Assembly: GCA_038045945.1 (NCBI GenBank)
Contig: JBBSXC010000001.1
Span: 52,592 to 116,591, forward strand
Reading direction: 5' to 3'
Source of the DNA: Nanobdellota archaeon
Lineage (GTDB): Archaea; Nanobdellota; Nanobdellia; Pacearchaeales; GW2011-AR1
DNA length: 64,000 nt
A program made the translations under genes and the position numbers. The notes under the pieces were generated by a model. The model made no database searches, was not told the DNA's origin, and saw only the letters and a list, made by a program, of their open reading frames with translations. Of the stretch, positions 3,635 to 45,145 are shown one piece after another (positions within the stretch are counted from its first letter, which is position 1; every line of letters starts with the position of its first letter).

Positions 3635-4453
3635 ATGGGGATCTATATACCGTATCCCTCTTCAAATCATACTACATCTGTAAGTGACTTTGTTATAACT
3701 ACTTTAACTTCTAAATGGCCTTTAACTGCTAAAAAACTCCATTACCATATTAAGTCTTATCAGAATTGTTCTTATCAGGGCGTTCATAAAGCTCTTAAAC
3801 AACTTTTAGAGTTTCAAGTTGTTGAAAAGGTTGGTAGAGAGTACTTTATCAGTAAGGATTGGTTACGATCCACTGCTAATCATTTGAAGCTTATTGAGCA
3901 GCAGTATAATAAGCCTAATAAAGCGGTTAATAACACTTTTATTTTTAATAGTTTAGAAGAAGCTGAGAGGTTTAAGAACGATCTTCATTGGAATCATCTT
4001 TATCATGGTGGACCTCAGGTCCTTTATGCTCATGTTTATCATTTAAGGTCTCCTATTATTAATACTGAGAGCATTCTTAAAAAGATTGAGAAGGATAGAG
4101 CTTCTAATAATGAGTCTTTTATTATTGTTCATGGCCAGACTAAGCTTGATAAGCATTGTAAGCATTTTTATGAGCAGTCTGGCAAGAATAATGTTGTACT
4201 TGGTAAAATTTTAGAAAATGATTGTGAGTTAAGAGTTATGGGTGATACTATAACTCAGATGTATCTTCCTAAAGAGCTTATTAGTCAACTTGACGAGTTT
4301 TATGATTCTGCTTCTATTAATAATCTCGAATTATACAAATTGTATGGTTTATTCAAAGAACAACACCAGATCAGGATTACTGTAACTATTAATAAGGAAA
4401 TGGCTAACTTGTTAAAAAAGCAGATTCTTCAGTCTTTTATATCTTCAAATTGA
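3635..4453 (+). CDS. hypothetical protein, N-terminal wHTH-like
   Basis: YQGVHKALKQLLEFQVVEKVGREYFISKDWL resembles a winged-helix recognition segment. Confidence 0.35.
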   Translation: MGIYIPYPSSNHTTSVSDFVITTLTSKWPLTAKKLHYHIKSYQNCSYQGVHKALKQLLEFQVVEKVGREYFISKDWLRSTANHLKLIEQQYNKPNKAVNNTFIFNSLEEAERFKNDLHWNHLYHGGPQVLYAHVYHLRSPIINTESILKKIEKDRASNNESFIIVHGQTKLDKHCKHFYEQSGKNNVVLGKILENDCELRVMGDTITQMYLPKELISQLDEFYDSASINNLELYKLYGLFKEQHQIRITVTINKEMANLLKKQILQSFISSN

Positions 4454-5141
4454 ATACTCTGATGGCATTGCCATGTAATATCAGGTTTTTTTCTTCTTGT
4501 GTTAATTCAGATTTTAACACTTTTAGTATTTCTATTTGGTGATCTGAGAATGGTACGTCTGATCCGAACATTATTCTGTCTGCCCCTACTTGTTTTGCTC
4601 TTAGTTTTATTATGAATGGTGATGATACTATTGATGTTTCCACGTACACATTGTCGCATGCTTGCATTCTTGAGAAGAATTCGTCTGAGTCTCCAGCAAA
4701 ATGTCCAAACACGAATGGTATTTTTGGGTAACGTTTAGCTAATGTTAATAATCTTTCTGGATCTGTTGATGATAATCCTTCTTTTCTTGTGTGTATTATT
4801 ATGGGTTTTGATTTTTCTGATAATATTTTGAAGAACCATGATAATTGTTCATCTAAAGGGTCAAAGTCTTCTCCTCTAGGGTGGAGTTTTATTGCTACAA
4901 AATCGTCTAATACTCTAACAAGTATATTACGATCAATCACTTTAGGATTGCATCTTAAGACTGGTAATAAGTCTTGATGTAAATCTCTTAACTCTAAACT
5001 ATGCTCAAAAACATCTCTCTGAGATTTTAGAGGAAAAACAAGTGATTTAGTCACACCATGTTTTTTCATTGATTCTAACAGTTGTAGTGAGTTAAGACCT
5101 GTTTTTCCTTCTCCAACATGTGTATGGACATCAATTATCAT
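4437..5141 (-). CDS. amidohydrolase-2 family metal-dependent hydrolase (TIM barrel)
   Basis: MIIDVHTHVG N-terminal metal-binding motif, HTRKEG, FGSDVPF; overlaps upstream gene end (5138/5141). Confidence 0.7.
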   Translation of the reverse strand: MIIDVHTHVGEGKTGLNSLQLLESMKKHGVTKSLVFPLKSQRDVFEHSLELRDLHQDLLPVLRCNPKVIDRNILVRVLDDFVAIKLHPRGEDFDPLDEQLSWFFKILSEKSKPIIIHTRKEGLSSTDPERLLTLAKRYPKIPFVFGHFAGDSDEFFSRMQACDNVYVETSIVSSPFIIKLRAKQVGADRIMFGSDVPFSDHQIEILKVLKSELTQEEKNLILHGNAIRVFNLKI

Positions 5142-5689
5142 AATAATTCTACTCCTATACCAAATGCGTCTCCTCTTTCATATCTTAATACACTATATGT
5201 TCTATTTAAGTTGTCATCCTTTGATAATGGACGAGTTTTTGTCAGCATTCGTCCATAACATCCCTCGACTATTTTTCTTGTTATTTTATAATCTTTTATT
5301 TTTTCTTCAGATACGCATTCATCTAGTATGTTTCTTAATGAATGTTCAATAATAGGGTTTTGTGTTGTTGTTTTTATATTCCTTAGTTTACGTGATAGTC
5401 CTTCATCAACTCTGCACCTCAAAAGGCTATAATAATGACCATTTTTGTGTTTTTCTTCTCTTACTACTGAGCCTGCTAAGTAAAAACTTCCTTCTGATAG
5501 GCTCATTGATGAAAAGCCTACAGCCTTCCCACGTTCATAAGTAACAAATACTAATTCTGGTTCCTGTATATGCCTCTTTACTTCTTCTGGGCTCATTCCT
5601 GAACCAAAAGTAGCAATTGATAAGTCTACTAGTTCATTCATAACACCTTCTGGTATTGGATTTGTTGATTTTTCGAACTTGTTTATCAT
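5138..5689 (-). CDS. hypothetical protein, possible GNAT-like acyltransferase fold
   Basis: beta-strand/acetyl-CoA-like segment VVREEKHKNGHYYSLL; overlaps both neighbours by 4 nt. Confidence 0.35.
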   Translation of the reverse strand: MINKFEKSTNPIPEGVMNELVDLSIATFGSGMSPEEVKRHIQEPELVFVTYERGKAVGFSSMSLSEGSFYLAGSVVREEKHKNGHYYSLLRCRVDEGLSRKLRNIKTTTQNPIIEHSLRNILDECVSEEKIKDYKITRKIVEGCYGRMLTKTRPLSKDDNLNRTYSVLRYERGDAFGIGVELL

Positions 5690-6279
5690 AATGGTTCTCC
5701 TAAAATTATTCTATTCTCTCTTGATGTTACAGGTAAAAATTTTATTTCGGCTTCGAACCCTTCGCTTTTAACTCTTCTTAATCTTGCTTCATCTATGAAG
5801 TGTCCAACTGATTGATAATTCTGAACGCTTTCACCACGCATTAAGTCAGCATATGCCAGAAGATTTCTTTGTGTATGACAACATGTTTGCACAACAAATG
5901 GACTTTTGTTTTTTACTGCTGCTGATATTAATTTGTCTGTTAATTCTCCACATAAGTGCAAACCTGTTAGGAATGCATCTGTTGGTATATCCGTATAATC
6001 TTCTATTCTGCCTACAAATCTAATAAATGGCTTCTTTATTAGTGCAGAATAATAATCAGCTTTTCTTATTAATGCTGGTTCAACCGTTCTTACTGACTTA
6101 ACACTGTCATGTCTTGATAGCATGTAAGCTAATTGATGATCACCTGAGCCTACATCAACTATTTCATAACCGCCTGATATAGAATCAAAAAATTTTGTTG
6201 CTTCTTTATAAAAAGCGAGAACCTTGTCATCAAGGTTAATCTTTCTCTTAGACATCTCTAGCCACCATTCTACCGACAT
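5686..6279 (-). CDS. SAM-dependent methyltransferase
   Basis: EIVDVGSGDHQLAYML motif I, LHLCGELTD motif; overlaps neighbours. Confidence 0.55.
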   Translation of the reverse strand: MSVEWWLEMSKRKINLDDKVLAFYKEATKFFDSISGGYEIVDVGSGDHQLAYMLSRHDSVKSVRTVEPALIRKADYYSALIKKPFIRFVGRIEDYTDIPTDAFLTGLHLCGELTDKLISAAVKNKSPFVVQTCCHTQRNLLAYADLMRGESVQNYQSVGHFIDEARLRRVKSEGFEAEIKFLPVTSRENRIILGEPL

Positions 6280-7810
6280 GGTACAAGTGTTTAATTAATC
6301 CATTAACTCTTTCATCTGTATGGTGATTCATTATTTGGACGTATAATCCTCCAAATCCTTCCGCTTTTTCGTTTAGCCCTACTTTTCTTTTTGATTCTTT
6401 GTATGCTGCTAAGTCTTCTAGTGTTCTTACTTTCATAGTATCACTGTGGGATATGTAGTATCTTTCTTCGTCTCCTGATTCATTAATCCTGTGATATACT
6501 CGATCATTAGCTTTATGTCCCCCTTCTTTCATCTCAAATGGTATTATTGGGCATGCTGAACCAGTTATTAATTTGAACGGGCTTTCTGGGCTTTCTAGTG
6601 CTTGTGATAATTTTTTTGTTAGTCCTTGCATCCTTTCTGCTTCTTTCCTTAGACCGCTCATTCCTCTGCTTGTTAAATAAGCCCATAGCATTACCGCGTT
6701 ATGGCCTGATCTTGATATGAACATTCCGGGTAATTGTCCCATTTCTTCAACAAATTCATAACCTTGGCTTTTATCACTGTGTAAATATGGTGATTCTAGA
6801 CTTGTCTCGTTCATTAGTTCTGTATCTCTGAACATTACAACTCCTCCCCCGTATACTGCCCCTGGTGTTTTGTGAGGGTCTAAAATTATTGCTTTTACTC
6901 CTTCTATCCCAAAGTCCCATTCTTGATGGATTGATTTTTCTCCAATAACAGATGAGAACAAAAATTGTTGTGCTGCATCCACAATTATTGGTGGAGTATT
7001 TTTTCCTCCGTATTTTTCTTTTAGTATTTCAAACATCTCACTTACTTTGTCAAGTCTTCCCTTACTAACGTCACCTACTGTTGGAATAACTGCTAGTATA
7101 TTATCTCCTTGCTTGTGAATTTCATCAATTCTTTCTCTAAAACTTTTAAGGTCTGTTTGATATTTATTATCTAATCCATAGTGTACGACTGAGTCAATAC
7201 CTAAGCCTAAAACATCTGCTGCTCTCTCAACACATAGATGTGCGTCAACGGGTACAAGAATTTTTGGTTTGTCTCCTAAGAAACTTTGTAAGCCTGAAGC
7301 TCTAATTTTTGGTTTATCATGTTTGTTATTGTTTGCGAATGAAAAACCTTCTTTTTCTCTGAAATATTTGTTTCTAAAGGAATAAAGTGCTTGAGTCATT
7401 GATTCGCTGCCTCCCGAGGTAAACCAGGCGTTGCATCTTCTAATGTTTGGGTGGTGCATTAATTCGCCAAGCATGCTCATTGTTTCCCTTTCTAACTCAA
7501 ACATTCCTACAAACATTGCAGGATCAACCAGGTTAGGGTGTATTCTTCCAACTACACTAGCTGCTAGACTATAAGAGAATTGGTCTGGTAAAGTTCCAGG
7601 TTTAGCGTCCATTATTCCTTTATCATAACGAACGGCGCATCTTTCAACTGCTTTTTCCACTTCTTCGACTAATAATTCTTTATCAATGCCTTTTTCTGGT
7701 ATTTTAAAGCATCTTTTTCTTTGTGGAATTATATCAACTAACTTTTTTTTGTTTTGTTGTTTTTCTGAAGAATGATAGCGCTGTATTGGATCAAAAAAAT
7801 CTGCTGTCAT
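6248..7810 (-). CDS. PLP-dependent group II amino-acid decarboxylase
   Basis: TSGGSESM (S-G-G-S-E-S signature of group II decarboxylases) and PLP-lysine context ILDPHKTPGAVYGGGVV; 520 aa. Confidence 0.8.
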   Translation of the reverse strand: MTADFFDPIQRYHSSEKQQNKKKLVDIIPQRKRCFKIPEKGIDKELLVEEVEKAVERCAVRYDKGIMDAKPGTLPDQFSYSLAASVVGRIHPNLVDPAMFVGMFELERETMSMLGELMHHPNIRRCNAWFTSGGSESMTQALYSFRNKYFREKEGFSFANNNKHDKPKIRASGLQSFLGDKPKILVPVDAHLCVERAADVLGLGIDSVVHYGLDNKYQTDLKSFRERIDEIHKQGDNILAVIPTVGDVSKGRLDKVSEMFEILKEKYGGKNTPPIIVDAAQQFLFSSVIGEKSIHQEWDFGIEGVKAIILDPHKTPGAVYGGGVVMFRDTELMNETSLESPYLHSDKSQGYEFVEEMGQLPGMFISRSGHNAVMLWAYLTSRGMSGLRKEAERMQGLTKKLSQALESPESPFKLITGSACPIIPFEMKEGGHKANDRVYHRINESGDEERYYISHSDTMKVRTLEDLAAYKESKRKVGLNEKAEGFGGLYVQIMNHHTDERVNGLIKHLYHVGRMVARDV

Positions 7811-7812
7811 TT

Positions 7813-8847
7813 CTAATAGTATTTTAGAAGCATTACTTTTCTTACTTCTTCCATAGTTTTGCTTGCTTCCTCCCTTGCTTTTTCTCCTCCTTCTCTTAGT
7901 ACTGTCTCTATTGTTTTGTCTGATATGCTGTCAAACCTGTTTCTGTATTCTTTGTATGTTGTTGACATTAATGGTGGTAGTTTTTGTTTGCATTCTCCAC
8001 ATCCTAGTATTGCTTGCCTACAACCGTAGTATACTTCAGCGAATTTTTCTTGGTTGTATATTCTGTGAAGGTCGTAAACGCTGCATTCGTCTGGGTTTCC
8101 TGCGACTTGCATACTTGTTCTTTTTGGGTCTATTCTCATCTTTGCAACTTTTTCTGATAATGTTTTTCCTGTGTCTTGTGGGCTTATCGTGTTTGCGTAA
8201 CTCTTTGACATTTTTCTTCCGTCTGTTCCTAGTATTCTTGGCGCGTTACTTGTCAGTATTTCTGGTACTGGGAATATTGGTCCGTATGTTGCGTTGAATC
8301 TTTTTGCTAATTCTTGGCATAGTTCTATGTGTGGTTTTTGGTCGTCTCCTACAGGTACATATTTTGCTTTGTGTACTAGTATGTCTGCTGCTTGTAATAA
8401 TGGGTATCCTAAAAACCCGTAACTTACTTGGTCTGCTTCTAATTTTTTTCTGTTATGTCCTTCTTCTTTCATTATTTGTACGTATTCTGTGAATGTTGGC
8501 ATTCTCTGAAGTCTTGCTACTGTGTTTAGCATTGATAACGCTACGTGTAACTCTGCGTGTTGTGGTACGTCTGATTGTACAAATATTGTTGATTTTTTTG
8601 GGTCTATTCCGAAAGCTAACCAGTCACGAACCATGTCATAAGTGTTTTTTCTTATTTCTTTTGATTCTGTGTTTGTTGTTAGTGCGTGCCAGTCTGCTAC
8701 GAAGAATTTGCATGCGTATTCTTCTTGTAATTGTAACCATTTTCTTAATACTCCTTCTATGTGCCCTATGTGTAGTCTTCCTGTTGGTCTCATCCCGGAT
8801 AATACTGTAGGTTTTAATTCATCATTAGTTTTTTCTTCTAAACTCAT
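7813..8847 (-). CDS. trpS: tryptophanyl-tRNA synthetase, bacterial type, with C-terminal Cys cluster
   Basis: LSGMRPTGRLHIGH (HIGH), GIDPKKSTIFVQS (near-identical to E. coli GIDPEKSTIFVQS), KMSKS; C-x20-C-x6-C-x2-C near C-terminus resembles [4Fe-4S] TrpRS motif. Confidence 0.9.
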   Translation of the reverse strand: MSLEEKTNDELKPTVLSGMRPTGRLHIGHIEGVLRKWLQLQEEYACKFFVADWHALTTNTESKEIRKNTYDMVRDWLAFGIDPKKSTIFVQSDVPQHAELHVALSMLNTVARLQRMPTFTEYVQIMKEEGHNRKKLEADQVSYGFLGYPLLQAADILVHKAKYVPVGDDQKPHIELCQELAKRFNATYGPIFPVPEILTSNAPRILGTDGRKMSKSYANTISPQDTGKTLSEKVAKMRIDPKRTSMQVAGNPDECSVYDLHRIYNQEKFAEVYYGCRQAILGCGECKQKLPPLMSTTYKEYRNRFDSISDKTIETVLREGGEKAREEASKTMEEVRKVMLLKYY

Positions 8848-9155
8848 AATTATTCATTATTAAAAAGAAACGAAATAGCTTTGGTTGAAGCTTATTCTTT
8901 TTTTAGTGTTATTATTATAAACTAATAGTTGATTTTTTCCTTTATTACTTTAGTATTATGTAGTTTTTCTTGCACAAAACCTTTTTATAGCTCATTATTC
9001 CTTGTTTATTTAATGGAAAGAAGTTTTGGTTCATTAGTCATGGTTTGTAGTATTATGCCTAGATGGACTTATACACCTTCTTCTCATATTTTTGGTTAAG
9101 AGGCTAATTTTTTAGCACTTCTTAAAAAAATAAACTTTTTTACCTCTAAACCAAA

Positions 9156-9518
9156 ATGACTAATAAAAATAAATCTAATGCTTTTGAATTTGACTTAGTA
9201 CTGTCAAGTGTTTTGTCTTTTGTTAAGTGTAAGATTCCTCAGAAACATATTGATGCTCTTAGAATAATTCATCAGGTTGATAGTGAGCTTAATGCTACTT
9301 CTCTTATTACTCTTATTTCTGGTAGTTTGTACTGTTCTACTTCTACTTCTTGGAACATTTTAAGGTCTCTTAATAAGCACGGATTTATTGTTTGTGGTAC
9401 TAAGGATGATAAGGGTAAACTTGTTCGTCTTACAAATTTCGGTATAGTAGTAATAGGAGGTGTTTTTGATGACAAAAAAGTCTTGTCCAAGAATCATAGA
9501 AGAATATTTGCTTCATGA
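9156..9518 (+). CDS. winged-helix (MarR/PadR-like) transcriptional regulator, putative
   Basis: WNILRSLNKHGFIVCGTKDDKGKLVRLTNFG wing pattern. Confidence 0.4.
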   Translation: MTNKNKSNAFEFDLVLSSVLSFVKCKIPQKHIDALRIIHQVDSELNATSLITLISGSLYCSTSTSWNILRSLNKHGFIVCGTKDDKGKLVRLTNFGIVVIGGVFDDKKVLSKNHRRIFAS

Positions 9519-9681
9519 CCCTTTACTTATTGATGACGGCTTGAAGGGTAGAGAAGTTAGTAAGGGTTTAGATGTTCTCCTTAGTGATGGTATGCAGAAC
9601 TCTAATAATTCTTATGATGATCTTAGGAGTATTATTGTTCCCGGCTATGATGGAGGTAATAGTTATGGTGGTATGATCTAG
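9460..9681 (+). CDS. hypothetical small protein
   Basis: 73-aa ORF overlapping end of previous; weak. Confidence 0.2.
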   Translation: MFLMTKKSCPRIIEEYLLHDPLLIDDGLKGREVSKGLDVLLSDGMQNSNNSYDDLRSIIVPGYDGGNSYGGMI

Positions 9682-9756
9682 TGCTCTTTTAGGATATAAT
9701 TAGAAATAATAGTTTTTAGTATAGATTTACTTAAAAGAGAACAGAAACTCATTAGG

Positions 9757-10827
9757 ATGATGTTAGCTGGTACATTCTCAAATACTGATATAAGAAAAGC
9801 CATAAGTAGCGGGGAGATTATTTCTAGAGCTGAAATAAGTGATGTTCAAGTTCAGCCTTCTTCTCTTGATTTAACTATTGGTAGAAAAATTTGGTGTTTA
9901 CCTTACTCTTCAATACCTCAGGGGAGAATAGAGGATTACTTGGATGGGAAGAAGTCTGATGTTGAAGATAAAGACGAGACTTATTTGCATAAGAGAGTTT
10001 TATACGTTGCTGAAATAAATGAGGAGTTAAGATTACCTGGCGATGTTGAAGGAAAATCTGAGCCTAAGAGTTCAACTGGTAGGATTGATGTTCATGTAAG
10101 GCTTCTTACGCAGGGCGGACAAGCTTATGATCAGGTGAGACCTGGTTATAATGGAAAATTGTTTTTAGAAATTTTTTCTAAAACTTTTGATTTAAAAATA
10201 AAGTCTGGCACTTCTCTTAACCAGTTAAGATTATCTGATAATGGTTGCGAATTTTTGAGTAAGTCTAGGCTTGAGGAGTTATGCACTGATCAGAGAGTTA
10301 TTTTTACCGGCGATGGTAAGGCTATTAGCCCTGATGAATTTTTGGAGGATGATTCTATATCTATGACTCTTGATCTTAGTGGTGATAATCCTGGCTATAT
10401 TGGTAGGGATGATGCTCCCCCTCTTGATCTTTCTCGCTTCGATCATGGTTTACTTAAATATTTTGATGTTCCTAAAGTTTTTGATGAGGGTCTTGTTACT
10501 AGGCCTGGTGCTTTTTATTTGCTTAGGTCTAGGGAGAGGGTTAGGATTCCTCGCAGGTATGGTGGTGAAATGGTTAGTATGGAAACAAATCTTGGTGAGT
10601 TTAGGGCTCATTATGCTGGTTTTTTTGATCCTGGCTTTAATGCTCGTGCGGTTTTAGAGGTTAGGAATATTGGTGGTTCTCCTTTCTTGTTAAGGCATGG
10701 TCAAAGGATTGCTAACCTCAAACTTTTAAGGTTGAAGACTAAGCCTTCAATAATTTATGGTAGGGGCATTGGTAGTAATTATCAGGGTCAGCAATTAAAC
10801 CCCGGTAAATATTTTAAAGCAATTTAG
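9757..10827 (+). CDS. dCTP deaminase family protein, long (two-domain) form
   Basis: N-terminal DIRKAI..VQPSSLDLTIG resembles Dcd (..VDVRLG); 356 aa fits long DCD family. Confidence 0.6.
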   Translation: MMLAGTFSNTDIRKAISSGEIISRAEISDVQVQPSSLDLTIGRKIWCLPYSSIPQGRIEDYLDGKKSDVEDKDETYLHKRVLYVAEINEELRLPGDVEGKSEPKSSTGRIDVHVRLLTQGGQAYDQVRPGYNGKLFLEIFSKTFDLKIKSGTSLNQLRLSDNGCEFLSKSRLEELCTDQRVIFTGDGKAISPDEFLEDDSISMTLDLSGDNPGYIGRDDAPPLDLSRFDHGLLKYFDVPKVFDEGLVTRPGAFYLLRSRERVRIPRRYGGEMVSMETNLGEFRAHYAGFFDPGFNARAVLEVRNIGGSPFLLRHGQRIANLKLLRLKTKPSIIYGRGIGSNYQGQQLNPGKYFKAI

Positions 10828-10872
10828 ATATTTGGAGTGTAGGTTTATTAATTTGTAAATCTCTGTTATAAT

Positions 10873-11142
10873 ATGTCAAAAAAAGAAATCTCTACTGGTG
10901 TAGTTCATGGTGTGCCTGATGATTTGCGTAAGACTCTTGCTTCTTCTTCGCATGCTCTAAAATCTTGGGAGAGTCTTACTCCTCTTGCTCGTAATGAGTG
11001 GATTTGTTGGGTTGAGTCTGTTAAAAAGGTTGAGACTAGGAATGATCATCTTAGAAGGCTTCTTCAGGATCTTATTAATGGTAAGCGTCGTCCTTGTTGT
11101 TGGGCTGGTTGTATTCATCGATTTAAAAATAAGAGAAATTAG
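10873..11142 (+). CDS. YdeI/OmpD-associated family protein
   Basis: LARNEWICWVESVKKVETR motif typical of YdeI-like domain. Confidence 0.5.
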   Translation: MSKKEISTGVVHGVPDDLRKTLASSSHALKSWESLTPLARNEWICWVESVKKVETRNDHLRRLLQDLINGKRRPCCWAGCIHRFKNKRN

Positions 11143-11155
11143 CCATATTTACAAA

Positions 11156-11167
11156 ACGCCCCCACCG
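11156..11167. repeat. 12-13 nt fragment identical to tRNA-Glu 3' end (acgcccccaccg)
   Basis: exact match to reverse complement of the 3' acceptor/T-stem of both tRNA-Glu genes; isolated GC-rich island in AT-rich spacer. Confidence 0.4.
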
Positions 11168-11205
11168 CCGAAGGAGTCATCAATGCATCAAGCAGGGATA
11201 TAAAA

Positions 11206-11424
11206 TTAAGTTTTCTTCTTATCAGAAATTTTTCTTATCCATTGTACATCAATTAATATTATTAAAAATGCTATGCCTATCTTTAACCACCATACTCCCT
11301 TAAAACCTTCCAGTAAATCTTGTATCCCTAGGGCTCCTAAACCGCCAGCAGCCATTATTAAGAACTCATCAAAAAGTGTCTGATCCATTTTACTATAAAC
11401 TACAATCTCTCTCTTTTTTACCAT
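11206..11424 (-). CDS. small membrane protein
   Basis: 72 aa, two hydrophobic segments. Confidence 0.35.
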   Translation of the reverse strand: MVKKREIVVYSKMDQTLFDEFLIMAAGGLGALGIQDLLEGFKGVWWLKIGIAFLIILIDVQWIRKISDKKKT

Positions 11425-11529
11425 ACCTAATGATTAATATCTTAGTTTATAATAATTATCGAGATAGAATATATCAGAGAAAGCTAAATAAACTAATTAA
11501 AACTGATAATCTAATAAAAAGGTGATAAA

Positions 11530-12279
11530 ATGAGTATCCCAAAATTTAAAGATAAACATCTCTACGACTCTATGGTTAATCCCGCTAATGCTATGAGCAT
11601 TATTAACAAAAAATTCAAGAATCTTCCCAAAAAGTATCTCTTTGTTTATGAAAAGTTCGCACTTCGATATTTTTTAAGAAAGTATAAGCCTAAGAAATTG
11701 GTTCTTTCAGGGAGAATGACTATTTATCTGCATAAAGATATCGGTTTTGTTAGAATGGAAGGTATCGGTGCTCCTTACACTGTGGGTTTCATGGAAAACC
11801 TAATTGGTCTTGGAGGGAAGGTCTTCCTCAATATTGGCTTTGCTGGAGGACTTCATAAAGAGGGAATTATCCTTTGTAAAAAATCTTTAAGGGATGAAGG
11901 AACTAGCCATCACTATATCCCTCATGGAGATTATGCTCATCCAGATGAAGAATTAACAAAAAAGCTTGCTAATTTTCTTGATAAGAACAAGGTAGAATAT
12001 TCTGCTGGAGACTCCTGGACTACAGACTCTTACTTTAGAGAAACTAAAGAAGAAGTTGCAAAGTATTCTAAAGAAGGAATAATAGCTGTAGAAATGGAAA
12101 GCTCTGCCTTGTTTACGGTTGGTAAATTCAGAAACGTAAAAGTAGCATCAGCTTTTGTTGTTAGCGATATCTTAAGAGACAAGTGGGAACAAAAAGCTGA
12201 ACACTATAATGTTAAGGGCGGTCTAAAGAAATTAGTTGATCTGGGAATAAAGTTTTTAGGAAATAACGGAGTTAAATGA
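11530..12279 (+). CDS. nucleoside phosphorylase family 1 (PNP/UDP/MTAP-like)
   Basis: GIIAVEMESSALF motif characteristic of PNP_UDP_1 family; 249 aa. Confidence 0.75.
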   Translation: MSIPKFKDKHLYDSMVNPANAMSIINKKFKNLPKKYLFVYEKFALRYFLRKYKPKKLVLSGRMTIYLHKDIGFVRMEGIGAPYTVGFMENLIGLGGKVFLNIGFAGGLHKEGIILCKKSLRDEGTSHHYIPHGDYAHPDEELTKKLANFLDKNKVEYSAGDSWTTDSYFRETKEEVAKYSKEGIIAVEMESSALFTVGKFRNVKVASAFVVSDILRDKWEQKAEHYNVKGGLKKLVDLGIKFLGNNGVK

Positions 12280-21897: not shown

Positions 21898-24135
21898 ATG
21901 AAAGAAATAAGAGGTGGTAAAGTACTTTTGGGTTTTTTGTTAATAATTGTTTTCTTATTTTCCTTATTTCTTTTTGCTAATAATGGTTCTTATTCTGGTT
22001 TAGCTGTTTATAATTTTGGCCCTTTTGATGATAGTAATAGTTTTGGTCTTTGGACTTCTAGTGGTTCTAGTATGGACGGTTCTTACTCTATTGACAATCA
22101 AGTTTTTTCTGGTGGTACTGGTAGTTTGAAGGGTTCTACAGCCGGTCATAATAAGTCTTTTGTTGGCGTTACTCTTAGTCAGAAGCTTTCTCCTAATATG
22201 ACTCAGAATGGTGAATACCTCAATTTTTATTGGCGTAAGTCTTATCAGAATTCTTTATCTGTTACTAATAATATGTCTATTATTCTTTTAAGACCTGATA
22301 ATAGTAAGGTTGTTTTGTGGAATGATTTGTCTAATAATTATGATTCTTGGTCTGGTGAATCTGTTCAGATTAATTCTTTTAATCAACAGGGGGATTATTA
22401 TCTGGTTTTGGGTTGTGATTTGAAAACTGGTGAACTTTCTGATAATTCTTCTTCTACTTCTTGTTATTTTGATGAGGTAGTTATTGATACTCAGGGGAGT
22501 CCTTCTTCGCCCATTAGCCCTTTCTTTTATTCTTATCAGCAAACTCCTTCTAGTGGTGTTTCTTATAATGTTTCTACGGTTTATGATTTTAGGGTTTCTG
22601 TTTCTAATTCTGATGGTAAACCTTGGATTGATTTGGATAGTGCTAATAGGAGTCTTTCTCAAGTTTCTGGTAATACTTATCGTTTATTGGCCAGTAATTT
22701 GAGTGCTGGTACGCATTCTTTTTATTATTGGAGTTGGAATAATGGCGGTATTGCTAGTAGAGCTAGGAATTCTTCTCCTGTTATGACTTATCAGGTAACT
22801 AAAGGTTTTGGGGAGCTTAAGACTATTATTAATGGTTATAGGGGCGATTACACTGTTTCTAACAACACTGTTATTTGTTTTTCTGTTATTGCTCCAGATT
22901 CTGCTGATGGTTTGAGAACTATTTCTGTTAATGGTAAGTTGTTTGGTAAGCACGATAGTAACTTTCAGAATTGTACTTCTTTCTCTACCCCTCAGGTTGT
23001 TAATATTAGTTCTTATTGGGATGGCGGTACTAACTACTTTTCTGATTCTGAGTCATGGCAACTTAGAGTTATTAAGGAGTCTGAAATAGTTAATTATAAT
23101 GAGACTGTGATTAAGGTTCTTTCACCTTTCAATATAGATTATTCTTCTGATACTAAATTTTTAGATTTCTCTCTTGTTTCTAATACTGATCTTCGTGAGT
23201 GTCGTTATTCCTTAAACGGTTTAGAATCAGTACTTATGGATAAGGCTAATGGTACTTCTTTCTCTAAAAACGTTATTACAACTCCTGGCTCTCACCAATT
23301 GTTCTTTATATGTAAGGATAATCTTGGTACTGTTTTTAATGTTCAACCAGTTATTAATTTTAATGTTAAGGATCAGCCTAAAGTTGGTGTTATTAAGTCT
23401 AATTTGAATTTTTCTTCAGTTAATGATTCTTGTACTCCTTCTTGGAAGTGTTCAGAGTGGTCTGATTGTTCTGCTGTTTCTTATGATCCTAGTGAAATAA
23501 TTAGTGGTAAGATTGATGTTAGGGGTGAGCAGAGGAGGATTTGTTATGATACTACTATTTGTAAGAATGCGGTTATTGAGAAGCAGGTTTGTGATGTTAG
23601 GATCCCTGTTAGGGCTGAGGCTAAGTTTTGGTGTGAACAAAACTATATTGAGATTTATGATTTAGTTACTAACCAGTTAGTTAGTAGGATTAAGGAGAGG
23701 GATATTGGCAATACTAAGACTGCTGATATTGGTTTTGTTATGAGTGAATTTGGTGATTATTGTGATTATTGTTATAATGATGCTCGTGATTTTGATGAAG
23801 CTGGTATTGATTGTGGTGGTAAAAATTGTCCTGCTTGTTACAATAAGAGTTCGCAGAAGGCTCTTTCTTCTAATGCTTTAAGGTTTTCTTTAACTATTAT
23901 TGAAGTTTTAGTTTTGGGTAGCATTATTTCTTACTTGTTTTATTGGTTGATTGTTAAAAGGTTGTGGGCTGGTGAAGAGTCTGAAGAGTTGGTTAGTCCT
24001 GCGATGTCGCTTGTTAAGCAGGCTATGAAGAGGGGTTATTCTAAGGACCAAATTTATGAATTGTTCAAGAAGAAGGGTTGGAAGGATAGGGATATTGATC
24101 AGTTAATAAGGGAATCGCAAAAAAAGTTTGATTAA
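21898..24135 (+). CDS. large cell-surface protein (signal/TM anchor, Cys-rich region, C-terminal TM and cytoplasmic tail)
   Basis: N-terminal hydrophobic helix, S/T/N-rich extracellular repeats, Cys-rich segment, TM LTIIEVLVLGSIISYLFYWLIV. Confidence 0.6.
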   Translation: MKEIRGGKVLLGFLLIIVFLFSLFLFANNGSYSGLAVYNFGPFDDSNSFGLWTSSGSSMDGSYSIDNQVFSGGTGSLKGSTAGHNKSFVGVTLSQKLSPNMTQNGEYLNFYWRKSYQNSLSVTNNMSIILLRPDNSKVVLWNDLSNNYDSWSGESVQINSFNQQGDYYLVLGCDLKTGELSDNSSSTSCYFDEVVIDTQGSPSSPISPFFYSYQQTPSSGVSYNVSTVYDFRVSVSNSDGKPWIDLDSANRSLSQVSGNTYRLLASNLSAGTHSFYYWSWNNGGIASRARNSSPVMTYQVTKGFGELKTIINGYRGDYTVSNNTVICFSVIAPDSADGLRTISVNGKLFGKHDSNFQNCTSFSTPQVVNISSYWDGGTNYFSDSESWQLRVIKESEIVNYNETVIKVLSPFNIDYSSDTKFLDFSLVSNTDLRECRYSLNGLESVLMDKANGTSFSKNVITTPGSHQLFFICKDNLGTVFNVQPVINFNVKDQPKVGVIKSNLNFSSVNDSCTPSWKCSEWSDCSAVSYDPSEIISGKIDVRGEQRRICYDTTICKNAVIEKQVCDVRIPVRAEAKFWCEQNYIEIYDLVTNQLVSRIKERDIGNTKTADIGFVMSEFGDYCDYCYNDARDFDEAGIDCGGKNCPACYNKSSQKALSSNALRFSLTIIEVLVLGSIISYLFYWLIVKRLWAGEESEELVSPAMSLVKQAMKRGYSKDQIYELFKKKGWKDRDIDQLIRESQKKFD

Positions 24136-27982: not shown

Positions 27983-28054
27983 TGGGTCCGGAGAGATTCG
28001 AACTCTCATCCTTCGCTCTGGAGGCGAAGAGACTAACCGTTATCCTACGGGCCC
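27983..28054 (-). tRNA. tRNA-Trp (anticodon CCA)
   Basis: acceptor GGGCCCG/CGGACCC (one C-A mismatch), anticodon stem TTCGC/GCGAA with loop CTCCAGA, T-arm GAGAG-TTCGAAT-CTCTC; no intron. Confidence 0.8.
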
Positions 28055-37903: not shown

Positions 37904-38041
37904 TGAGCCTATGCGGATTTGAACCGCAGACCTCCGGCTTTCTTAGCACGTATATGCCACTAAAGCATTAGTTCGCTCAAGTTGCTTGAGAGAACAACGT
38001 CTTATAAGACCGGCGTTCTAACCGGGCTGAACTATAGGCTC
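37904..38041 (-). tRNA. tRNA-Ile (anticodon TAT = UAU) containing a ~63-nt intron at the canonical 37/38 position
   Basis: acceptor GAGCCTA/TAGGCTC (perfect), D-arm GTTC-AGCCCGGTTA-GAAC, anticodon stem CCGGT...GCCGG with loop CTTATAA interrupted after position 37, T-arm TGCGG-TTCAAAT-CCGCA. Confidence 0.7.
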
Positions 38042-41845: not shown

Positions 41846-43882
41846 TTAGTGGTATTCGTTTCTTGCTTTGAATGAGTCTATGAATTTGCTGTTGTCGTCT
41901 CTGTTTACTACGCTGTTTAGTTCGTATGCTTCTGTGTCTCCTTTAACTATCTTTTTGACTTTTGTTGCTGATGCTACTCTTCTTTGCATTTGTTGTGATA
42001 GTAATACTTCGCTTGTTGCTCCGTCTGCTAATTTTTTTGCTAGGCTTAGTGTTTGTCCTAGGCTTGTGAATTTTAGTTTTTTTGTTTGTTTGTCTATTTC
42101 TACTACTAGGTCTCCGTGGTTTATTCCTATTCCGAATTCTATTTTGTTTGCTGGGTTTGATTTTGAGTTGTGTAGTGTTAGTACGGATTTTATTTCTTGT
42201 GCTATTATTAGGCTTGTGTTTTCTGTTTTGTATGTTTTCGTTGCGCTTGGTGCTAGTATTCCTATGATGAATTCTTCTGCTTGGTATACTGATCCTTTAA
42301 CTTTTGTTATTTGTGCTATTATTGTTTCTAGTGCTGTTTTGTAGTAGTCTTGTTTTTCTATTTTTTGTTTGTTTTTTATTTTTATTGCTATTATTGAGCA
42401 TGGTTCTTTAACTCCCCTTATTACTAGTGAGTGTTCTGCTTCTTTTGGTGTTACTCTTCCTATTGTTACGTCTGAGCTTCTTATTGTGCTTATGTTTGGT
42501 GCTTCGTAGTTTGTGTTTCCGTACTTGTTTCCTTTTACAAGCCTACTTAATGCTGCCAGTGAAGGCATGTAGTGTATGAATTTTTGTTTTCCTAAGCCTT
42601 TTGATACTCCGAATATGAATAGTCCTAATACGCCTAGTATGAATAGCCATACTAGCGAGTATCTTGTTATTATTGATGTGCTGTCTGCTACGTCGATAAG
42701 TCTTACTGCATTACCTGTTAGTGATATTCCTGATGCTGAGAATTTTCCTACCCCATCTGTTGCTGATACGTCGTAACTTCCGTCTGGTGCTTGTAAACTG
42801 TATATTGCGCTTTCACCAACTCCTAATTCTAAGTCTATTATTTCTTTGTTTGGTCCTATTCCTACCTCAACGCTTTTTTTGTATGGTACGTTTCCCGTAT
42901 TTGCTATTTTTAGTGTTGTGTTGACTATTTCGAATGTTACTTTTTCTACTTCTGGTACGTAGAAGAATCGTTTGTTGCTTAGTGATTCTACTTTTACTAC
43001 TATTGTTCTGTATCCTGGTGTTTCGTTTATTGGTAAATCAATCATTATGTCTTCTCCCGAGTTTACTATTTGGTCGTTTATTTTTGTGTCTTCTCCGTTT
43101 AGTAATGAGTATCTTGCTTGTGTTGTTATTTCTTTATCTGTTTGGTCGTATACTAATATTTTGAATTTGTATGGTGTTCCTGGTGTTGCTTCTTGGTTTT
43201 CTATTGATACTTCTATTTTTCTTGCTTCTTGTTTTACGAATATGTTGCTTTCTAGGTTTGCGTCGTTTATTATGTTTCCTTGTTTGTCTTTTTCGTAAAC
43301 TTTTGTTTTTATTGAGTATGTTCCTGATGCCATGTTTTGTGGTAGGCTGAAGTTGTATACTGCTACTCCGTTAATTACTGGTAAGTCTAGTGATATTCCT
43401 GCTTCTGCGAATGTTACTGATGCGAATCCGTTTATTGCTTTTCCGTTTGCTTTTGTTGCGCTTATTCTTATGATTATGCTTTCGCTAGGCCCTACTTCTT
43501 TTTTGTCTATTTCTGCGTATGCGTCGGTGTGGTCGCTTATTGTGAATGTTTGGCTTTGAACTGATGATGTTCCGTATGTTGCTGCTATGAAGCATGATCC
43601 TTTTAGTGGTCCTATGAATGAGTTTGATAAAGTGAATGATTTTCTTACAATTGTTGATGATAATATGTCGTGTGTTATTACTACTTTGTTTTGTTCGCAG
43701 TTAAGACTCATATCGAAGAAGTTGTCTGATAAGCTGTCCACTGTTGCTGCTAGTGTTATTTCGTCGCCTAAGTTGTAAATTGCTGCTGGTTGTTCTAAGA
43801 ATACTTCAGCTCGCACAGCGCTAACTGTTAGTAATAATGTTACTGCTAAAACTATTAATAATACTGTTGATGACTTCACCAT
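41846..43882 (-). CDS. receptor-like surface protein: signal peptide, large extracellular region, single TM, cytoplasmic degenerate class III nucleotidyl-cyclase homology domain
   Basis: N-terminal MVKSSTVLLIVLAVTLLLTVSAVRA; TM LVWLFILGVLGLFIFGV; C-terminal FGIGINHGDLVV...LGQTLSLAKKLADGATSEVLLS matches cyclase (R)IGIHTG..VVG...GDTVNLAARLE..G.ILVS, but metal-binding Asp positions are replaced (IIAIKIKN). Confidence 0.55.
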   Translation of the reverse strand: MVKSSTVLLIVLAVTLLLTVSAVRAEVFLEQPAAIYNLGDEITLAATVDSLSDNFFDMSLNCEQNKVVITHDILSSTIVRKSFTLSNSFIGPLKGSCFIAATYGTSSVQSQTFTISDHTDAYAEIDKKEVGPSESIIIRISATKANGKAINGFASVTFAEAGISLDLPVINGVAVYNFSLPQNMASGTYSIKTKVYEKDKQGNIINDANLESNIFVKQEARKIEVSIENQEATPGTPYKFKILVYDQTDKEITTQARYSLLNGEDTKINDQIVNSGEDIMIDLPINETPGYRTIVVKVESLSNKRFFYVPEVEKVTFEIVNTTLKIANTGNVPYKKSVEVGIGPNKEIIDLELGVGESAIYSLQAPDGSYDVSATDGVGKFSASGISLTGNAVRLIDVADSTSIITRYSLVWLFILGVLGLFIFGVSKGLGKQKFIHYMPSLAALSRLVKGNKYGNTNYEAPNISTIRSSDVTIGRVTPKEAEHSLVIRGVKEPCSIIAIKIKNKQKIEKQDYYKTALETIIAQITKVKGSVYQAEEFIIGILAPSATKTYKTENTSLIIAQEIKSVLTLHNSKSNPANKIEFGIGINHGDLVVEIDKQTKKLKFTSLGQTLSLAKKLADGATSEVLLSQQMQRRVASATKVKKIVKGDTEAYELNSVVNRDDNSKFIDSFKARNEYH

Positions 43883-44002: not shown

Positions 44003-45145
44003 ATGACTGTTTTTATGGTAAAGGGTGAATCAATGAAGGTTACTCCTTATGAAGCAAAAGGGGAAATAGACTATGATCAATTAGTAAAACAGTTCGGTGT
44101 TGAGAGGATTGATCAAGATTTAATGAAGAGGATAGAAAAGAAGGCAGGTGAGCTACATTTCATGCTTCGCAGAGGAGTCTTTTTTGCGCATAGAGACTTA
44201 AAATTTGTACTTGAAGAGTACGATAAGGGAAACAAGTTTTATCTTTACACTGGGAGAGCTCCAAGTGGACCAATACATTTAGGGCATCTACAACCTTGGA
44301 TTTTTACTAAGTGGTTACAGGATACTTTTGGTGTAGAGTTATGGTTTCAATTCCCTGATGAAGAAAAATTTTTGTTTAAACCAGAGATGAGTTTTGAGGA
44401 TGGACAAAAATATCTTAATGATAATATGTTGGACATTATAGCTTTAGGTTTTGATCCTAAAAAGACTCACTTCTTGATAGATACTAAGCATGCAAATGCT
44501 ATGTACAAAGAAGCATGTAAAGTAGCAAAAAAGATTACTTTTAACATGGTAAGGTCATCATTCGGATTTGATGAAAGTGATAATATAGGATTAATATTTT
44601 ACACTAGTATGCAAGCTGTTCCAGCATTTTTGCCTTCGGTAATCGCAAAAAAGAATATTCCTTGTTTGATTCCTCACGCAGTTGACCAAGACGTCCACTT
44701 TAGGTTAACTAGGGATATTTTGCCAAAACTAGGTTATTATAAACCTGCAAGTATTCAATGCGTATTTTTGCCGCCTTTACAGGGGGTTGCTGGAAAGATG
44801 AGTTCATCACAAAGCAGTGAAGCAATACTAACTACTGATACACCAAAGGAAGTTGAGCGTAAGATTAACAGGTACGCTTTTAGTGGGGGAAGAGATACCA
44901 TTGAGGAGCATCGTAAACTTGGAGGAAATCCTGATGTTGATGTTTCTTACCAATATTTGAGGATGCTATTAGAAGATGATGATAAGAAACTAAAAAAGAT
45001 TCATGATGATTATAAGAGTGGAAAGATGACAACAGGCGAATTAAAGAAATATACTATTGATAAAATTAATTCTTTTTTAGCAGTTCATCAAAAGAAGCGC
45101 GAAGAAGCAAAAAAGGTTGTTGACAAATTTATTTGGAAAGAATGA
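44003..45145 (+). CDS. trpS: tryptophanyl-tRNA synthetase, archaeal/eukaryotic type
   Basis: YLYTGRAPSGPIHLGHLQPWIFTKWLQDTFGVELWFQFPDEEKF and AFSGGRDTIEEHRKLGGNPDVDVSYQYL are near-collinear with human WARS catalytic core; KMSSS. Confidence 0.9.
   Translation: MTVFMVKGESMKVTPYEAKGEIDYDQLVKQFGVERIDQDLMKRIEKKAGELHFMLRRGVFFAHRDLKFVLEEYDKGNKFYLYTGRAPSGPIHLGHLQPWIFTKWLQDTFGVELWFQFPDEEKFLFKPEMSFEDGQKYLNDNMLDIIALGFDPKKTHFLIDTKHANAMYKEACKVAKKITFNMVRSSFGFDESDNIGLIFYTSMQAVPAFLPSVIAKKNIPCLIPHAVDQDVHFRLTRDILPKLGYYKPASIQCVFLPPLQGVAGKMSSSQSSEAILTTDTPKEVERKINRYAFSGGRDTIEEHRKLGGNPDVDVSYQYLRMLLEDDDKKLKKIHDDYKSGKMTTGELKKYTIDKINSFLAVHQKKREEAKKVVDKFIWKE

Follow-up and report, generated by a model that had tools for sequence, protein, structure and literature searches.

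A 64-kb stretch of DNA from a Nanobdellota archaeon (hereafter the window; it is part of a 506-kb contig, and our statements about the window cover these 64 kb) carries, at positions 7813..8847, a gene for a bacterial-type tryptophanyl-tRNA synthetase (TrpRS). This gene is the first of an operon whose second member encodes a decarboxylase-like enzyme dependent on pyridoxal phosphate (PLP). The original prediction for this locus had drawn attention to a four-cysteine motif in the TrpRS and had missed the operon, which is the more informative feature of the two. Considered as a whole, the results are best explained by an active [4Fe-4S] TrpRS of the Thermotoga type that was acquired anciently and that probably serves as a dedicated second copy, co-expressed with tryptophan-processing enzymes. 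The observations behind this account are the family membership of the protein, the conservation of the cluster ligands, the intact catalytic motifs, and the structure of the operon together with its conservation in relatives. What is new beyond the motif is that the enzyme is an ancient second copy, that it shows no retuning to archaeal tRNA identity, and that it is linked to a rare decarboxylase in a conserved but variable gene cluster.

The TrpRS and its four-cysteine site

The gene and the signatures that define its product are as follows.

7813..8847, minus strand: bacterial-type TrpRS resembling that of T. maritima, 344 amino acids (aa), ATG start, first gene of the operon (TIGR00233, PF00579, and 2G36 match)
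8761..8772, minus strand: HIGH signature, residues 26-29 (2G36 alignment and sequence)
8200..8214, minus strand: KMSKS signature, residues 212-216 (2G36 alignment and sequence)
7990..8085, minus strand: four-cysteine motif Cys255-x20-Cys276-x6-Cys283-x2-Cys286 in the anticodon-binding domain (2G36 alignment)

The assignment of this open reading frame (ORF) to bacterial-type TrpRS, as originally proposed, was confirmed by a TIGR00233 score of 304.5 bits (cutoff 176.75), a PF00579 match at 2.5e-64, and a comparison with solved structures, in which the closest by sequence was T. maritima TrpRS (2G36; HMMER, E 7.3e-89). NCBI holds an identical protein named 'MAG: tryptophan--tRNA ligase [Nanoarchaeota archaeon]'. 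An AlphaFold2 model built from 63 homologues had a mean predicted local distance difference test (pLDDT) score of 93.6, with values of 95-98 at residues 250-290, and its top fold match in the PDB was again 2G36 (template modelling (TM) scores 0.87/0.92, root-mean-square deviation 2.0 Å, 45% identity). The lowest-confidence internal stretch of the model covers residues ~125-140 (block means 62-84). Besides the HIGH and KMSKS signatures, GDDQ at residues 167-170 and Asp155, located in the AADIL helix and equivalent to an aspartate with an indole-binding role (PMC12135181), are both intact. Asp155 is invariant across 122 family members, and the Asp-Gln pair of GxDQ is likewise invariant family-wide. 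These intact motifs suggest that the ORF encodes a catalytically competent TrpRS of the Thermotoga-type lineage.

The C-terminal third of the protein, which reads DECSVYDLHRIYNQEKFAEVYYGCRQAILGCGECK, holds all four motif cysteines; the whole protein has six. The predicted C-x20-C-x6-C-x2-C spacing was reproduced exactly by Cys255, Cys276, Cys283 and Cys286, whose codons occupy window positions 8083-8085, 8020-8022, 7999-8001 and 7990-7992, respectively, and no other window ORF of ≥100 aa contains a C-x6-C-x2-C pattern. In T. maritima TrpRS, the [4Fe-4S] ligands are Cys236, Cys259, Cys266 and Cys269 (PMC2954223). An alignment with that enzyme, proposed at the outset as a check (HMMER, 2G36), places the four window cysteines residue for residue on these four ligands, the sole difference within the motif being a two-residue loop deletion between the first two cysteines. 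A theoretical study described an R-FeS-H motif in which Arg224 touches a cluster sulfide and His242 touches the Cys269 thiolate (Stiebritz 2014, PMC4027196). The equivalents in the window TrpRS are Arg243 (in DPKR, 8119-8121) and His261 (Cys255+6), which are kept in 54/56 and 48/56 DPANN sequences. The suggested likeness to the [4Fe-4S] TrpRS of Thermotoga is supported: that enzyme is the best match by sequence and by fold, with ligands and second shell in register.

Conservation of the cysteines in close homologues, which the original prediction had named as a test, was nearly complete: C-x(19-22)-C-x6-C-x2-C is present in 119/120 nearest database homologues, and the four cysteines are invariant in our 63-sequence alignment and in 56 DPANN-clade plus 66 bacterial sequences. 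The ligand-by-ligand alignment with 2G36, this invariance, and the near-universal presence of the motif argue against a chance pattern. The spacing between the first two cysteines in the 120 homologues was x19 in 5, x20 in 51(+2), x21 in 52 and x22 in 9; because x20 and x21 dominate and x22 is a minority, x20 is ordinary family variation. The range published in 2010, x21-24 (PMC2954223), reflects the sampling of that time. By homology to the 2G36 crystal structure, the four cysteines are expected to lie adjacent to one another in the fold and to bind a [4Fe-4S] cluster in this predicted site; the occupancy of the site by a cluster is what we infer.

The original prediction had also stated that the cluster is needed for tRNA recognition, which goes further than the literature: Han et al. 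2010 (PMC2954223) only speculate on its role, naming stability or anticodon recognition, and the support for a role in recognition of C34 is computational (PMC4027196). The same authors found the motif in bacteria and archaea and noted that, in organisms with several TrpRS genes, one copy only has it (PMC2954223). Stiebritz additionally reported it in mesophiles such as Legionella and in the archaeal-type enzymes of A. pernix (3A04) and P. horikoshii (3JXE) (PMC4027196). The Fe-S site itself is ordinary for its family, and this class of enzyme, including its archaeal members and organisms with two TrpRS genes, has been known since 2010.

The operon and its conservation in relatives

Only 2 nucleotides (nt) separate the TrpRS stop from the start of the decarboxylase gene, and three further same-strand genes follow, their ends overlapping or abutting.

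6248..7810, minus strand: divergent group II PLP-dependent decarboxylase-like enzyme, 520 aa (PF00282, 1e-29)
5686..6279, minus strand: Methyltransf_32-family S-adenosylmethionine methyltransferase, 197 aa as listed, overlapping the end of the decarboxylase gene
5138..5689, minus strand: GNAT-like protein, 183 aa, weak Pfam match
4437..5141, minus strand: Amidohydro_2-family metal hydrolase, 234 aa, last gene of the string

To place this arrangement in context, we collected 17 distinct decarboxylase loci, window included, from assemblies and metagenomes (individual loci are cited below by L numbers). In 14 of the 17, the gene immediately preceding the decarboxylase, in the same orientation, encodes a TrpRS; the gap is 2-12 nt in 12 of these 14. 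In the remaining three, the TrpRS gene is 4 kb away (L008), there is none within 12 kb (L011), or the locus is cut by the contig end (L023). The same TrpRS-decarboxylase order was found in one further locus that is known without its DNA. Across pairs of loci, divergence in one protein tracks divergence in the other (r 0.81, Mantel p ~0.001), a value inflated by one identical pair. The decarboxylase is not confined to Fe-S TrpRS partners: in L016, L017 and L019 it is paired with a divergent archaeal-like TrpRS (best model NF008925, far below cutoff), and in L021 with a bacterial-type TrpRS that has no Cys motif. Because the pairing holds across different TrpRS lineages, it appears that TrpRS activity, rather than a particular protein, is conserved. 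A non-exhaustive literature search found no published description of a TrpRS-decarboxylase cluster.

The decarboxylase family is rare. An exhaustive profile search of 1.84 billion sequences yielded 34 representatives at E≤1e-30, and below the family members the profile scores fall to generic decarboxylase background. A profile scan of 185,579 species-representative genomes found two loci only; a single-sequence scan of species-representative genomes gave no match, and a profile search of a word-indexed protein database gave no further close members. Pfam, a PDB sequence search (MfnA at 7.5e-14) and fold comparison all class the window protein as group II decarboxylase-like, making this its predicted activity. 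It reached no NCBIfam equivalog, the best models (MfnA, PanP, GAD and DABA decarboxylase) all lying far below their cutoffs (for MfnA, 114 bits versus 299). The nearest solved folds are only 16-20% identical and form a distant, mixed set (MfnA, GAD, TyrDC, SPL, DABA decarboxylase). The PLP-binding Lys314 (in DPHK) and Asp278, His191 and Tyr342 are invariant in the family; Tyr342 sits in a low-confidence, presumably flexible loop of the model.

Viewed from the side of the synthetase, at least one recurrent partner gene was present in 18/18 examined DPANN Fe-S TrpRS loci. The partners, with the number of loci for each, were as follows.

Decarboxylase: 12
Methyltransf_32 protein: 9
AstE/AspA-family deacylase: 9
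GNAT-like protein: 5 (window, L001, L005, L018, L025)
HisRS-like catalytic-domain paralogue with a metallo-beta-lactamase (MBL)-fold hydrolase: 2
Chorismate-binding enzyme plus GATase: 2
Chorismate mutase: 2

AsnC-type regulators are frequent near Fe-S TrpRS loci, and an M20 peptidase is among the partner genes elsewhere in related clusters. The HisRS-like proteins (325-334 aa, no anticodon-binding domain) and their MBL-fold neighbors stand beside an Fe-S TrpRS and a Methyltransf_32 gene in L006 (7086..8970) and L024 (8716..10605), the latter additionally with an Asp/Glu racemase. The chorismate enzymes in TrpRS clusters (L005 9361..11600, L025 10314..12518, L001 8985..9662 and L026 10654..11349) are either anthranilate-synthase-like Chorismate_bind plus GATase or type II chorismate mutase; their hosts are expected to lack aromatic amino-acid biosynthesis.

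Within the window operon, PDB and literature look-ups for the Methyltransf_32 and GNAT-like proteins returned nothing informative. A scan of the operon for bacterial promoters and terminators found fewer sites than chance, the bacterial consensus being irrelevant for an archaeon. Divergent from the operon, across a ~300-nt AT-rich spacer, lies a 120-aa ORF without a Pfam hit (9156..9518, plus strand). Its C-terminal half looks winged-helix-like by eye, and an AsnC/Lrp-type regulator holds this position in many related loci. Also adjoining the TrpRS cluster is a gene for a two-domain dCTP deaminase-like protein (9757..10827, plus strand; PF06559/PF22569; NF005734 274 bits, cutoff 283). Such a gene stands beside the TrpRS cluster again in L007 (9887..11101), an apparent conserved synteny with no obvious functional link.

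A second copy, probably ancient, beside an archaeal TrpRS

GatD (46918..48216) and GatE (50760..52271) on the same contig score above their NCBIfam equivalog cutoffs, which identifies the genome as archaeal. GC content is flat across the window (0.31-0.38), with no anomaly at the TrpRS gene. An assembly or binning artefact was ruled out by the archaeal markers together with the uniform GC, which likewise argue against a recent insertion of the gene. In a neighbor-joining tree of Fe-S TrpRS, which is only indicative, sequences from metagenome-assembled genomes of Nano-, Woese- and Pacearchaeota and their metagenomic relatives form one deep clade with mutual identities of ~41-65%, located beside the bacterial Fe-S TrpRS of Halanaerobiales, Peptococcaceae and Thermotogae-like lineages. 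The depth of this DPANN clade and the identities within it rule out recent horizontal transfer. The pattern is as expected from one ancient bacterium-to-archaeon transfer followed by vertical descent: an ancestor of Nano-, Woese- and Pacearchaeota probably took the Fe-S TrpRS gene from bacteria long ago, the gene having since been inherited as a second TrpRS.

The window contains the other components relevant to tryptophan charging.

44003..45145, plus strand: canonical archaeal/eukaryal-type TrpRS, 380 aa (NF008927 512.5 bits, cutoff 478)
27983..28054, minus strand: tRNA-Trp(CCA) with G1-C72, a C4*A69 mismatch, discriminator A73 and no encoded CCA

The archaeal/eukaryal-type TrpRS that the original prediction had placed at 44003..45145 is supported by its score above the NF008927 cutoff. 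This enzyme has three cysteines, none of them in the anticodon-binding region, and it is presumed to be the housekeeping enzyme, for which it is the natural candidate. Both TrpRS types were seen in four of the examined loci: the window, L007, L026 and, more divergently, L024. The archaeal-type enzymes near the Fe-S copy in these relatives are 58% (L007), 48% (L026, directly upstream) and 35% (L024) identical to that of the window. The double-TrpRS state therefore recurs in the DPANN clade, and the Fe-S copy is the one tied to the variable cluster.

The tRNA-Trp was described originally as the only one present; this holds within the 64-kb window and does not stand as a statement about the whole genome. 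Rfam searches of the window at gathering thresholds returned tRNAs only, with no second or unusual tRNA-Trp and no riboswitch. The tRNA carries the archaeal/eukaryal identity set (G1-C72, A73). The C4*A69 pair in its acceptor stem is non-Watson-Crick and was flagged by Infernal. The Methyltransf_32 partner family is weakly similar to TRM13, a 2'-O-methyltransferase acting on tRNA position 4 (PF05206, E 0.0015), perhaps with no link to this mismatch.

Proposed function and competing explanations

In the account that we favor, Arg243 and His261 would form a second shell beside the expected place of anticodon base C34, and the TrpRS would be co-transcribed, and probably translationally coupled, with the decarboxylase-like enzyme and with tailoring and hydrolytic enzymes. 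The logic would be like that of tyrS-tdcA and hisS-hdcA, where a synthetase copy of its own is expressed along with enzymes that use up or release the cognate amino acid, and charging of tRNA-Trp would be kept up or coordinated during processing of free tryptophan. As an example, tryptophan could be decarboxylated to tryptamine, which would then be acylated or methylated; the genes for methyltransferase, acyltransferase and deacylase would suit a pathway that tailors or recycles an aromatic amine or N-acyl-tryptophan. We infer both tryptophan as the substrate of the decarboxylase and the purpose of the coupling.

The closest precedent is the tyramine cluster of Enterococcus and lactobacilli, in which tyrS precedes the tyrosine decarboxylase gene, a second, housekeeping tyrS is located elsewhere, and the cluster tyrS is proposed either to monitor tyrosine levels or to keep tRNA charged during decarboxylation (PMC3315439). 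In tyrS-tdcA-tyrP-nhaC and hisS-hdcA alike, a synthetase paralogue stands beside a co-regulated PLP- or pyruvoyl-dependent decarboxylase (PMC3315439). The cluster-linked synthetases of the tyrS-tdcA type form their own clade. The housekeeping copy is encoded elsewhere, as in the window with the gene at 44003..45145. The present cluster differs in concerning tryptophan, in being hosted by a DPANN archaeon and in having a synthetase with an Fe-S site; furthermore, the window lacks a conserved precursor/amine antiporter, its decarboxylase belongs to a separate, rare subfamily, and the accessory genes are those for a methyltransferase, a GNAT-like protein and a deacylase. An Rfam search at gathering thresholds revealed no T-box leader upstream of the window TrpRS; T-boxes are not expected in archaea.

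As an enzyme, the window TrpRS is most similar to T. maritima TM0492 (2G36; PMC2954223), with which it shares HIGH, KMSKS, the tryptophan-binding Asp, the cluster cysteines, the Arg224/His242 pair and the cluster domain. It differs in its first cysteine spacing (20 rather than 22) and in an insertion of ~9 residues at residues ~125-140. In context it is an archaeon's second TrpRS, whereas TM0492 is a bacterium's sole TrpRS; its gene shares an operon with that of a PLP decarboxylase-like enzyme, and A73 stands in place of the bacterial G73 in the visible tRNA-Trp. The A. pernix (3A04) and P. horikoshii (3JXE) enzymes are also archaeal TrpRS with a [4Fe-4S] or four-Cys site in the anticodon domain. 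However, they belong to the archaeal/eukaryal lineage, give E values of only 1e-16 to 1e-17 against the window protein, and have Gln/Asp as the second shell. The fold of D. radiodurans TrpRS II (1YI8) is also near that of the window enzyme (TM 0.88/0.91). We take TrpRS II to be an auxiliary bacterial-type TrpRS that keeps its charging activity and works with nitric-oxide synthase as a tryptophan-modifying partner. In contrast to the window enzyme, it has no Fe-S motif, and its partner is the synthase rather than a PLP enzyme; we know of no operon-level coupling of this kind for it.

Extra TrpRS genes have been described in DPANN archaea and candidate phyla radiation (CPR) bacteria: TrpRS-A or TrpRS-A-like enzymes occur beside a canonical TrpRS, always with a partner ORF (ORF1) and sometimes with their own tRNA-Trp(A73), and their function is thought to be related to tryptophan metabolism (Mukai et al. 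2017, PMC5370408). Those enzymes are of archaeal type with an ORF1 partner, whereas the extra copy in the window is of the bacterial Fe-S type with a decarboxylase; neither decarboxylase nor pyridoxal is mentioned in that report (PMC5370408). The archaeal-like TrpRS of L016, L017 and L019 may be candidates for the TrpRS-A clades. In L019, a tRNA-Trp with A73 lies just upstream of a 390-aa ORF of no known family and an Fe-S TrpRS, an arrangement (tRNA-Trp, ORF, TrpRS) that recalls the tRNA-ORF1-TrpRS-A operons of Mukai et al. (PMC5370408). The presence of tRNA-Trp(A73) beside an Fe-S TrpRS suggests that the bacterial-type enzyme works with A73 tRNA in this group, and the Fe-S enzyme of the window may charge A73 tRNA-Trp as well, perhaps with lower efficiency, or else serve a tRNA-Trp from another part of the 506-kb contig.

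Several observations weigh against the account of a dedicated copy serving tryptophan processing, some of them by favoring another explanation. One group concerns the tRNA. In the E. coli TrpRS-tRNA complex, Glu155 reads G73 through a hydrogen bond, with help from Gln152, and A73 substrates are charged 9- to 132-fold less well by bacterial TrpRS (PMC12135181). The Glu155 equivalent in the window Fe-S TrpRS, Glu175, is 100% conserved in DPANN and bacterial family members, and the position of Gln152 is Pro in nearly all of both. Comparison of 56 DPANN with 66 bacterial sequences revealed no DPANN-specific change at known tRNA-reading positions; the only clade-specific positions were I27, P223, Y298 and Y343, none of them at a site of known function. 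The sequence of the Fe-S TrpRS therefore gives no sign of retuning to A73, and the only visible tRNA-Trp has A73 and G1-C72. Another group concerns the proposed pathway. NCBIfam, PDB sequence and fold searches aimed at a substrate for the decarboxylase gave matches too distant and mixed to name one. Bacterial biogenic-amine clusters are defined by an amino-acid/amine antiporter, whereas no transporter is encoded among the operon genes (4437..8847), and in related loci transporters lie nearby in L007 (major facilitator superfamily) and L006 (a Na/H exchanger, no decarboxylase) only. Moreover, the usefulness of co-expressing a tryptophan-consuming with a tryptophan-charging enzyme is not self-evident. 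Finally, four-Cys sites are chemically ambiguous and can hold zinc, so that the cluster here is a prediction, and P. horikoshii TrpRS was crystallized without a cluster despite having the motif (PMC4027196). A zinc-binding or purely structural site nevertheless appears very improbable for the window enzyme, where ligand identity and order, and the two second-shell residues as well, agree with a crystallographically proven cluster site in a 45%-identical protein.

The pairing of TrpRS and PLP enzyme could also belong to a tRNA-linked pathway, in which the TrpRS paralogue makes Trp-tRNA or Trp-AMP for the neighboring enzymes rather than for the ribosome. Either the PLP enzyme would act on a tRNA-bound amino acid, following the logic of SepRS/SepCysS and SerRS/SepSecS/SelB, or a GNAT-fold transferase would transfer tryptophan from its tRNA to the amine product of the decarboxylase, as Fem and L/F-transferase-like enzymes do. 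SepCysS and SepSecS are fold-type I PLP enzymes, and the persistence of the pair with other TrpRS lineages (archaeal-like in L016, L017 and L019, without the Cys motif in L021) is in keeping with this idea. So are the GNAT-like genes in five clusters and the HisRS-like catalytic-domain paralogues in two. A tRNA-Trp (G73, encoded CCA) lies inside the L021 operon (8700..11881), between the bacterial TrpRS without Cys motif and a 647-aa decarboxylase-family member, and in L019 a tRNA-Trp stands next to another TrpRS copy; neither arrangement, nor the duplicated EF-1alpha of L016, is predicted by a simple model of dedicated charging. L021 is a 349-kb contig with bacterial-looking neighbors (a hybrid histidine kinase with an AraC domain, GH114). 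In L016 (3409..10150), the order is a TrpRS-like gene (430 aa), a decarboxylase-like gene (591 aa), an EF-1alpha paralogue (446 aa; TIGR00483 504 bits, cutoff 540), a canonical archaeal TrpRS (373 aa) and another EF-1alpha, truncated where the contig stops. Identity between the EF-1alpha pair is 43%, and this single locus thus holds duplicates of both TrpRS and elongation factor. However, the tRNA in an operon and the duplicated elongation factor are single cases in distant relatives, one of them apparently bacterial, and the GNAT-like gene occurs in a minority of clusters. The window has neither a dedicated tRNA nor an elongation factor, its only tRNA-Trp being canonical and 19 kb away, and the tryptophan pocket and anticodon domain of the Fe-S TrpRS look entirely canonical. 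The window PLP protein shares with the SepCysS, SepSecS and SelA systems the pairing with a synthetase but belongs to PF00282, the group II decarboxylase family, with Lys314, Asp278, His191 and Tyr342 invariant, and a tRNA ester is not decarboxylatable. We therefore consider it unlikely, though worth keeping in mind, that the conserved pair represents an undescribed tRNA-linked DPANN pathway, with a bacterial relative in L021, leading to a tryptophan-derived amide or other metabolite or to a modified tRNA-bound amino acid; such tRNA-dependent chemistry, if true, would be a new type of pathway.

Two further explanations were considered. The Fe-S TrpRS might be a plain redundant or condition-specific isoenzyme, a second housekeeping-type TrpRS, for instance one of high affinity or responsive to oxygen or iron that is used in tryptophan scarcity or strict anoxia, with tryptophan-salvage neighbors that are only loosely associated and not mechanistically coupled to it. 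Starvation- or stress-induced duplicate synthetases are well known, amino-acid auxotrophy is typical of DPANN archaea, many of the loci have flanking AsnC/Lrp-type regulators, and the T. maritima enzyme co-purified with bound tryptophan, which suggests tight binding. The AstE/AspA, M20 and Amidohydro_2 partners are from deacylase and peptidase families that could release tryptophan from N-acyl-tryptophan or peptides, and N-acetylated aromatic amino acids are the preferred substrates of an AspA-family member, mammalian aminoacylase 3. Yet the 2-nt gap, the co-divergence and the repeated re-creation of the pair with different TrpRS lineages exceed what a loose neighborhood would produce, and a response to amino-acid scarcity would hardly be expected to recruit an enzyme that breaks the amino acid down; we judge this explanation distinctly unlikely. 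The remaining possibility, that the extra TrpRS is the self-resistance gene of a biosynthetic cluster, protecting the host from a tryptophan-derived TrpRS inhibitor that the neighboring enzymes would make, as for indolmycin and chuangxinmycin, draws on the documented extra TrpRS copies in producers of such inhibitors and on neighbors that include a PLP enzyme, methyltransferases, an ATP-grasp/PPDK_N-like protein and acyltransferases. We give it almost no credence: the housekeeping TrpRS is of the archaeal/eukaryal type and is not obviously replaced by a bacterial-type copy, the cluster content is small and highly variable, the hallmark biosynthetic enzymes of known TrpRS inhibitors were not seen, and the paralogue, far from being sporadic, is maintained throughout an archaeal clade.

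These findings add one more lineage, the mesophilic, ultra-small DPANN archaea, to the Fe-S TrpRS class, and these members support the view that the cluster is not an adaptation of thermophiles only. A genome-reduced clade pays for a second, bacterial-derived, cofactor-expensive TrpRS tied to a rare decarboxylase-like enzyme; where enough sequence is visible, a normal archaeal TrpRS is also kept, and the tRNA-Trp in view carries the identity elements of archaea. The system is a natural test bed for asking what the TrpRS [4Fe-4S] cluster is for (anticodon reading, stability, or redox/iron sensing) and what leads clusters built around amino-acid decarboxylases to include a synthetase copy of their own. 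It could also supply genetic-code engineering with TrpRS/tRNA pairs that coexist in nature.

Elsewhere in the window, two large ORFs had no Pfam match at E≤1e-5: one of 745 aa with 18 cysteines (21898..24135, plus strand) and one of 678 aa with an N-terminal signal-like segment (41846..43882, minus strand). A seventh tRNA, missed by ARAGORN and found by Rfam, occupies 37904..38041 (minus strand); it is 138 nt long with anticodon UAU (tRNA-Ile-like) and has a 64-nt intron directly 3' of the anticodon loop region. Genes of the translation apparatus are unusually numerous in the window; among them are tandem class IIb synthetases 4 nt apart, a non-discriminating-type AspRS (53413..54687, plus strand; NF003483, 490 bits) and an AsnRS (54692..56026, plus strand; NF003037, 458 bits), located a few kb downstream of GatD and GatE.

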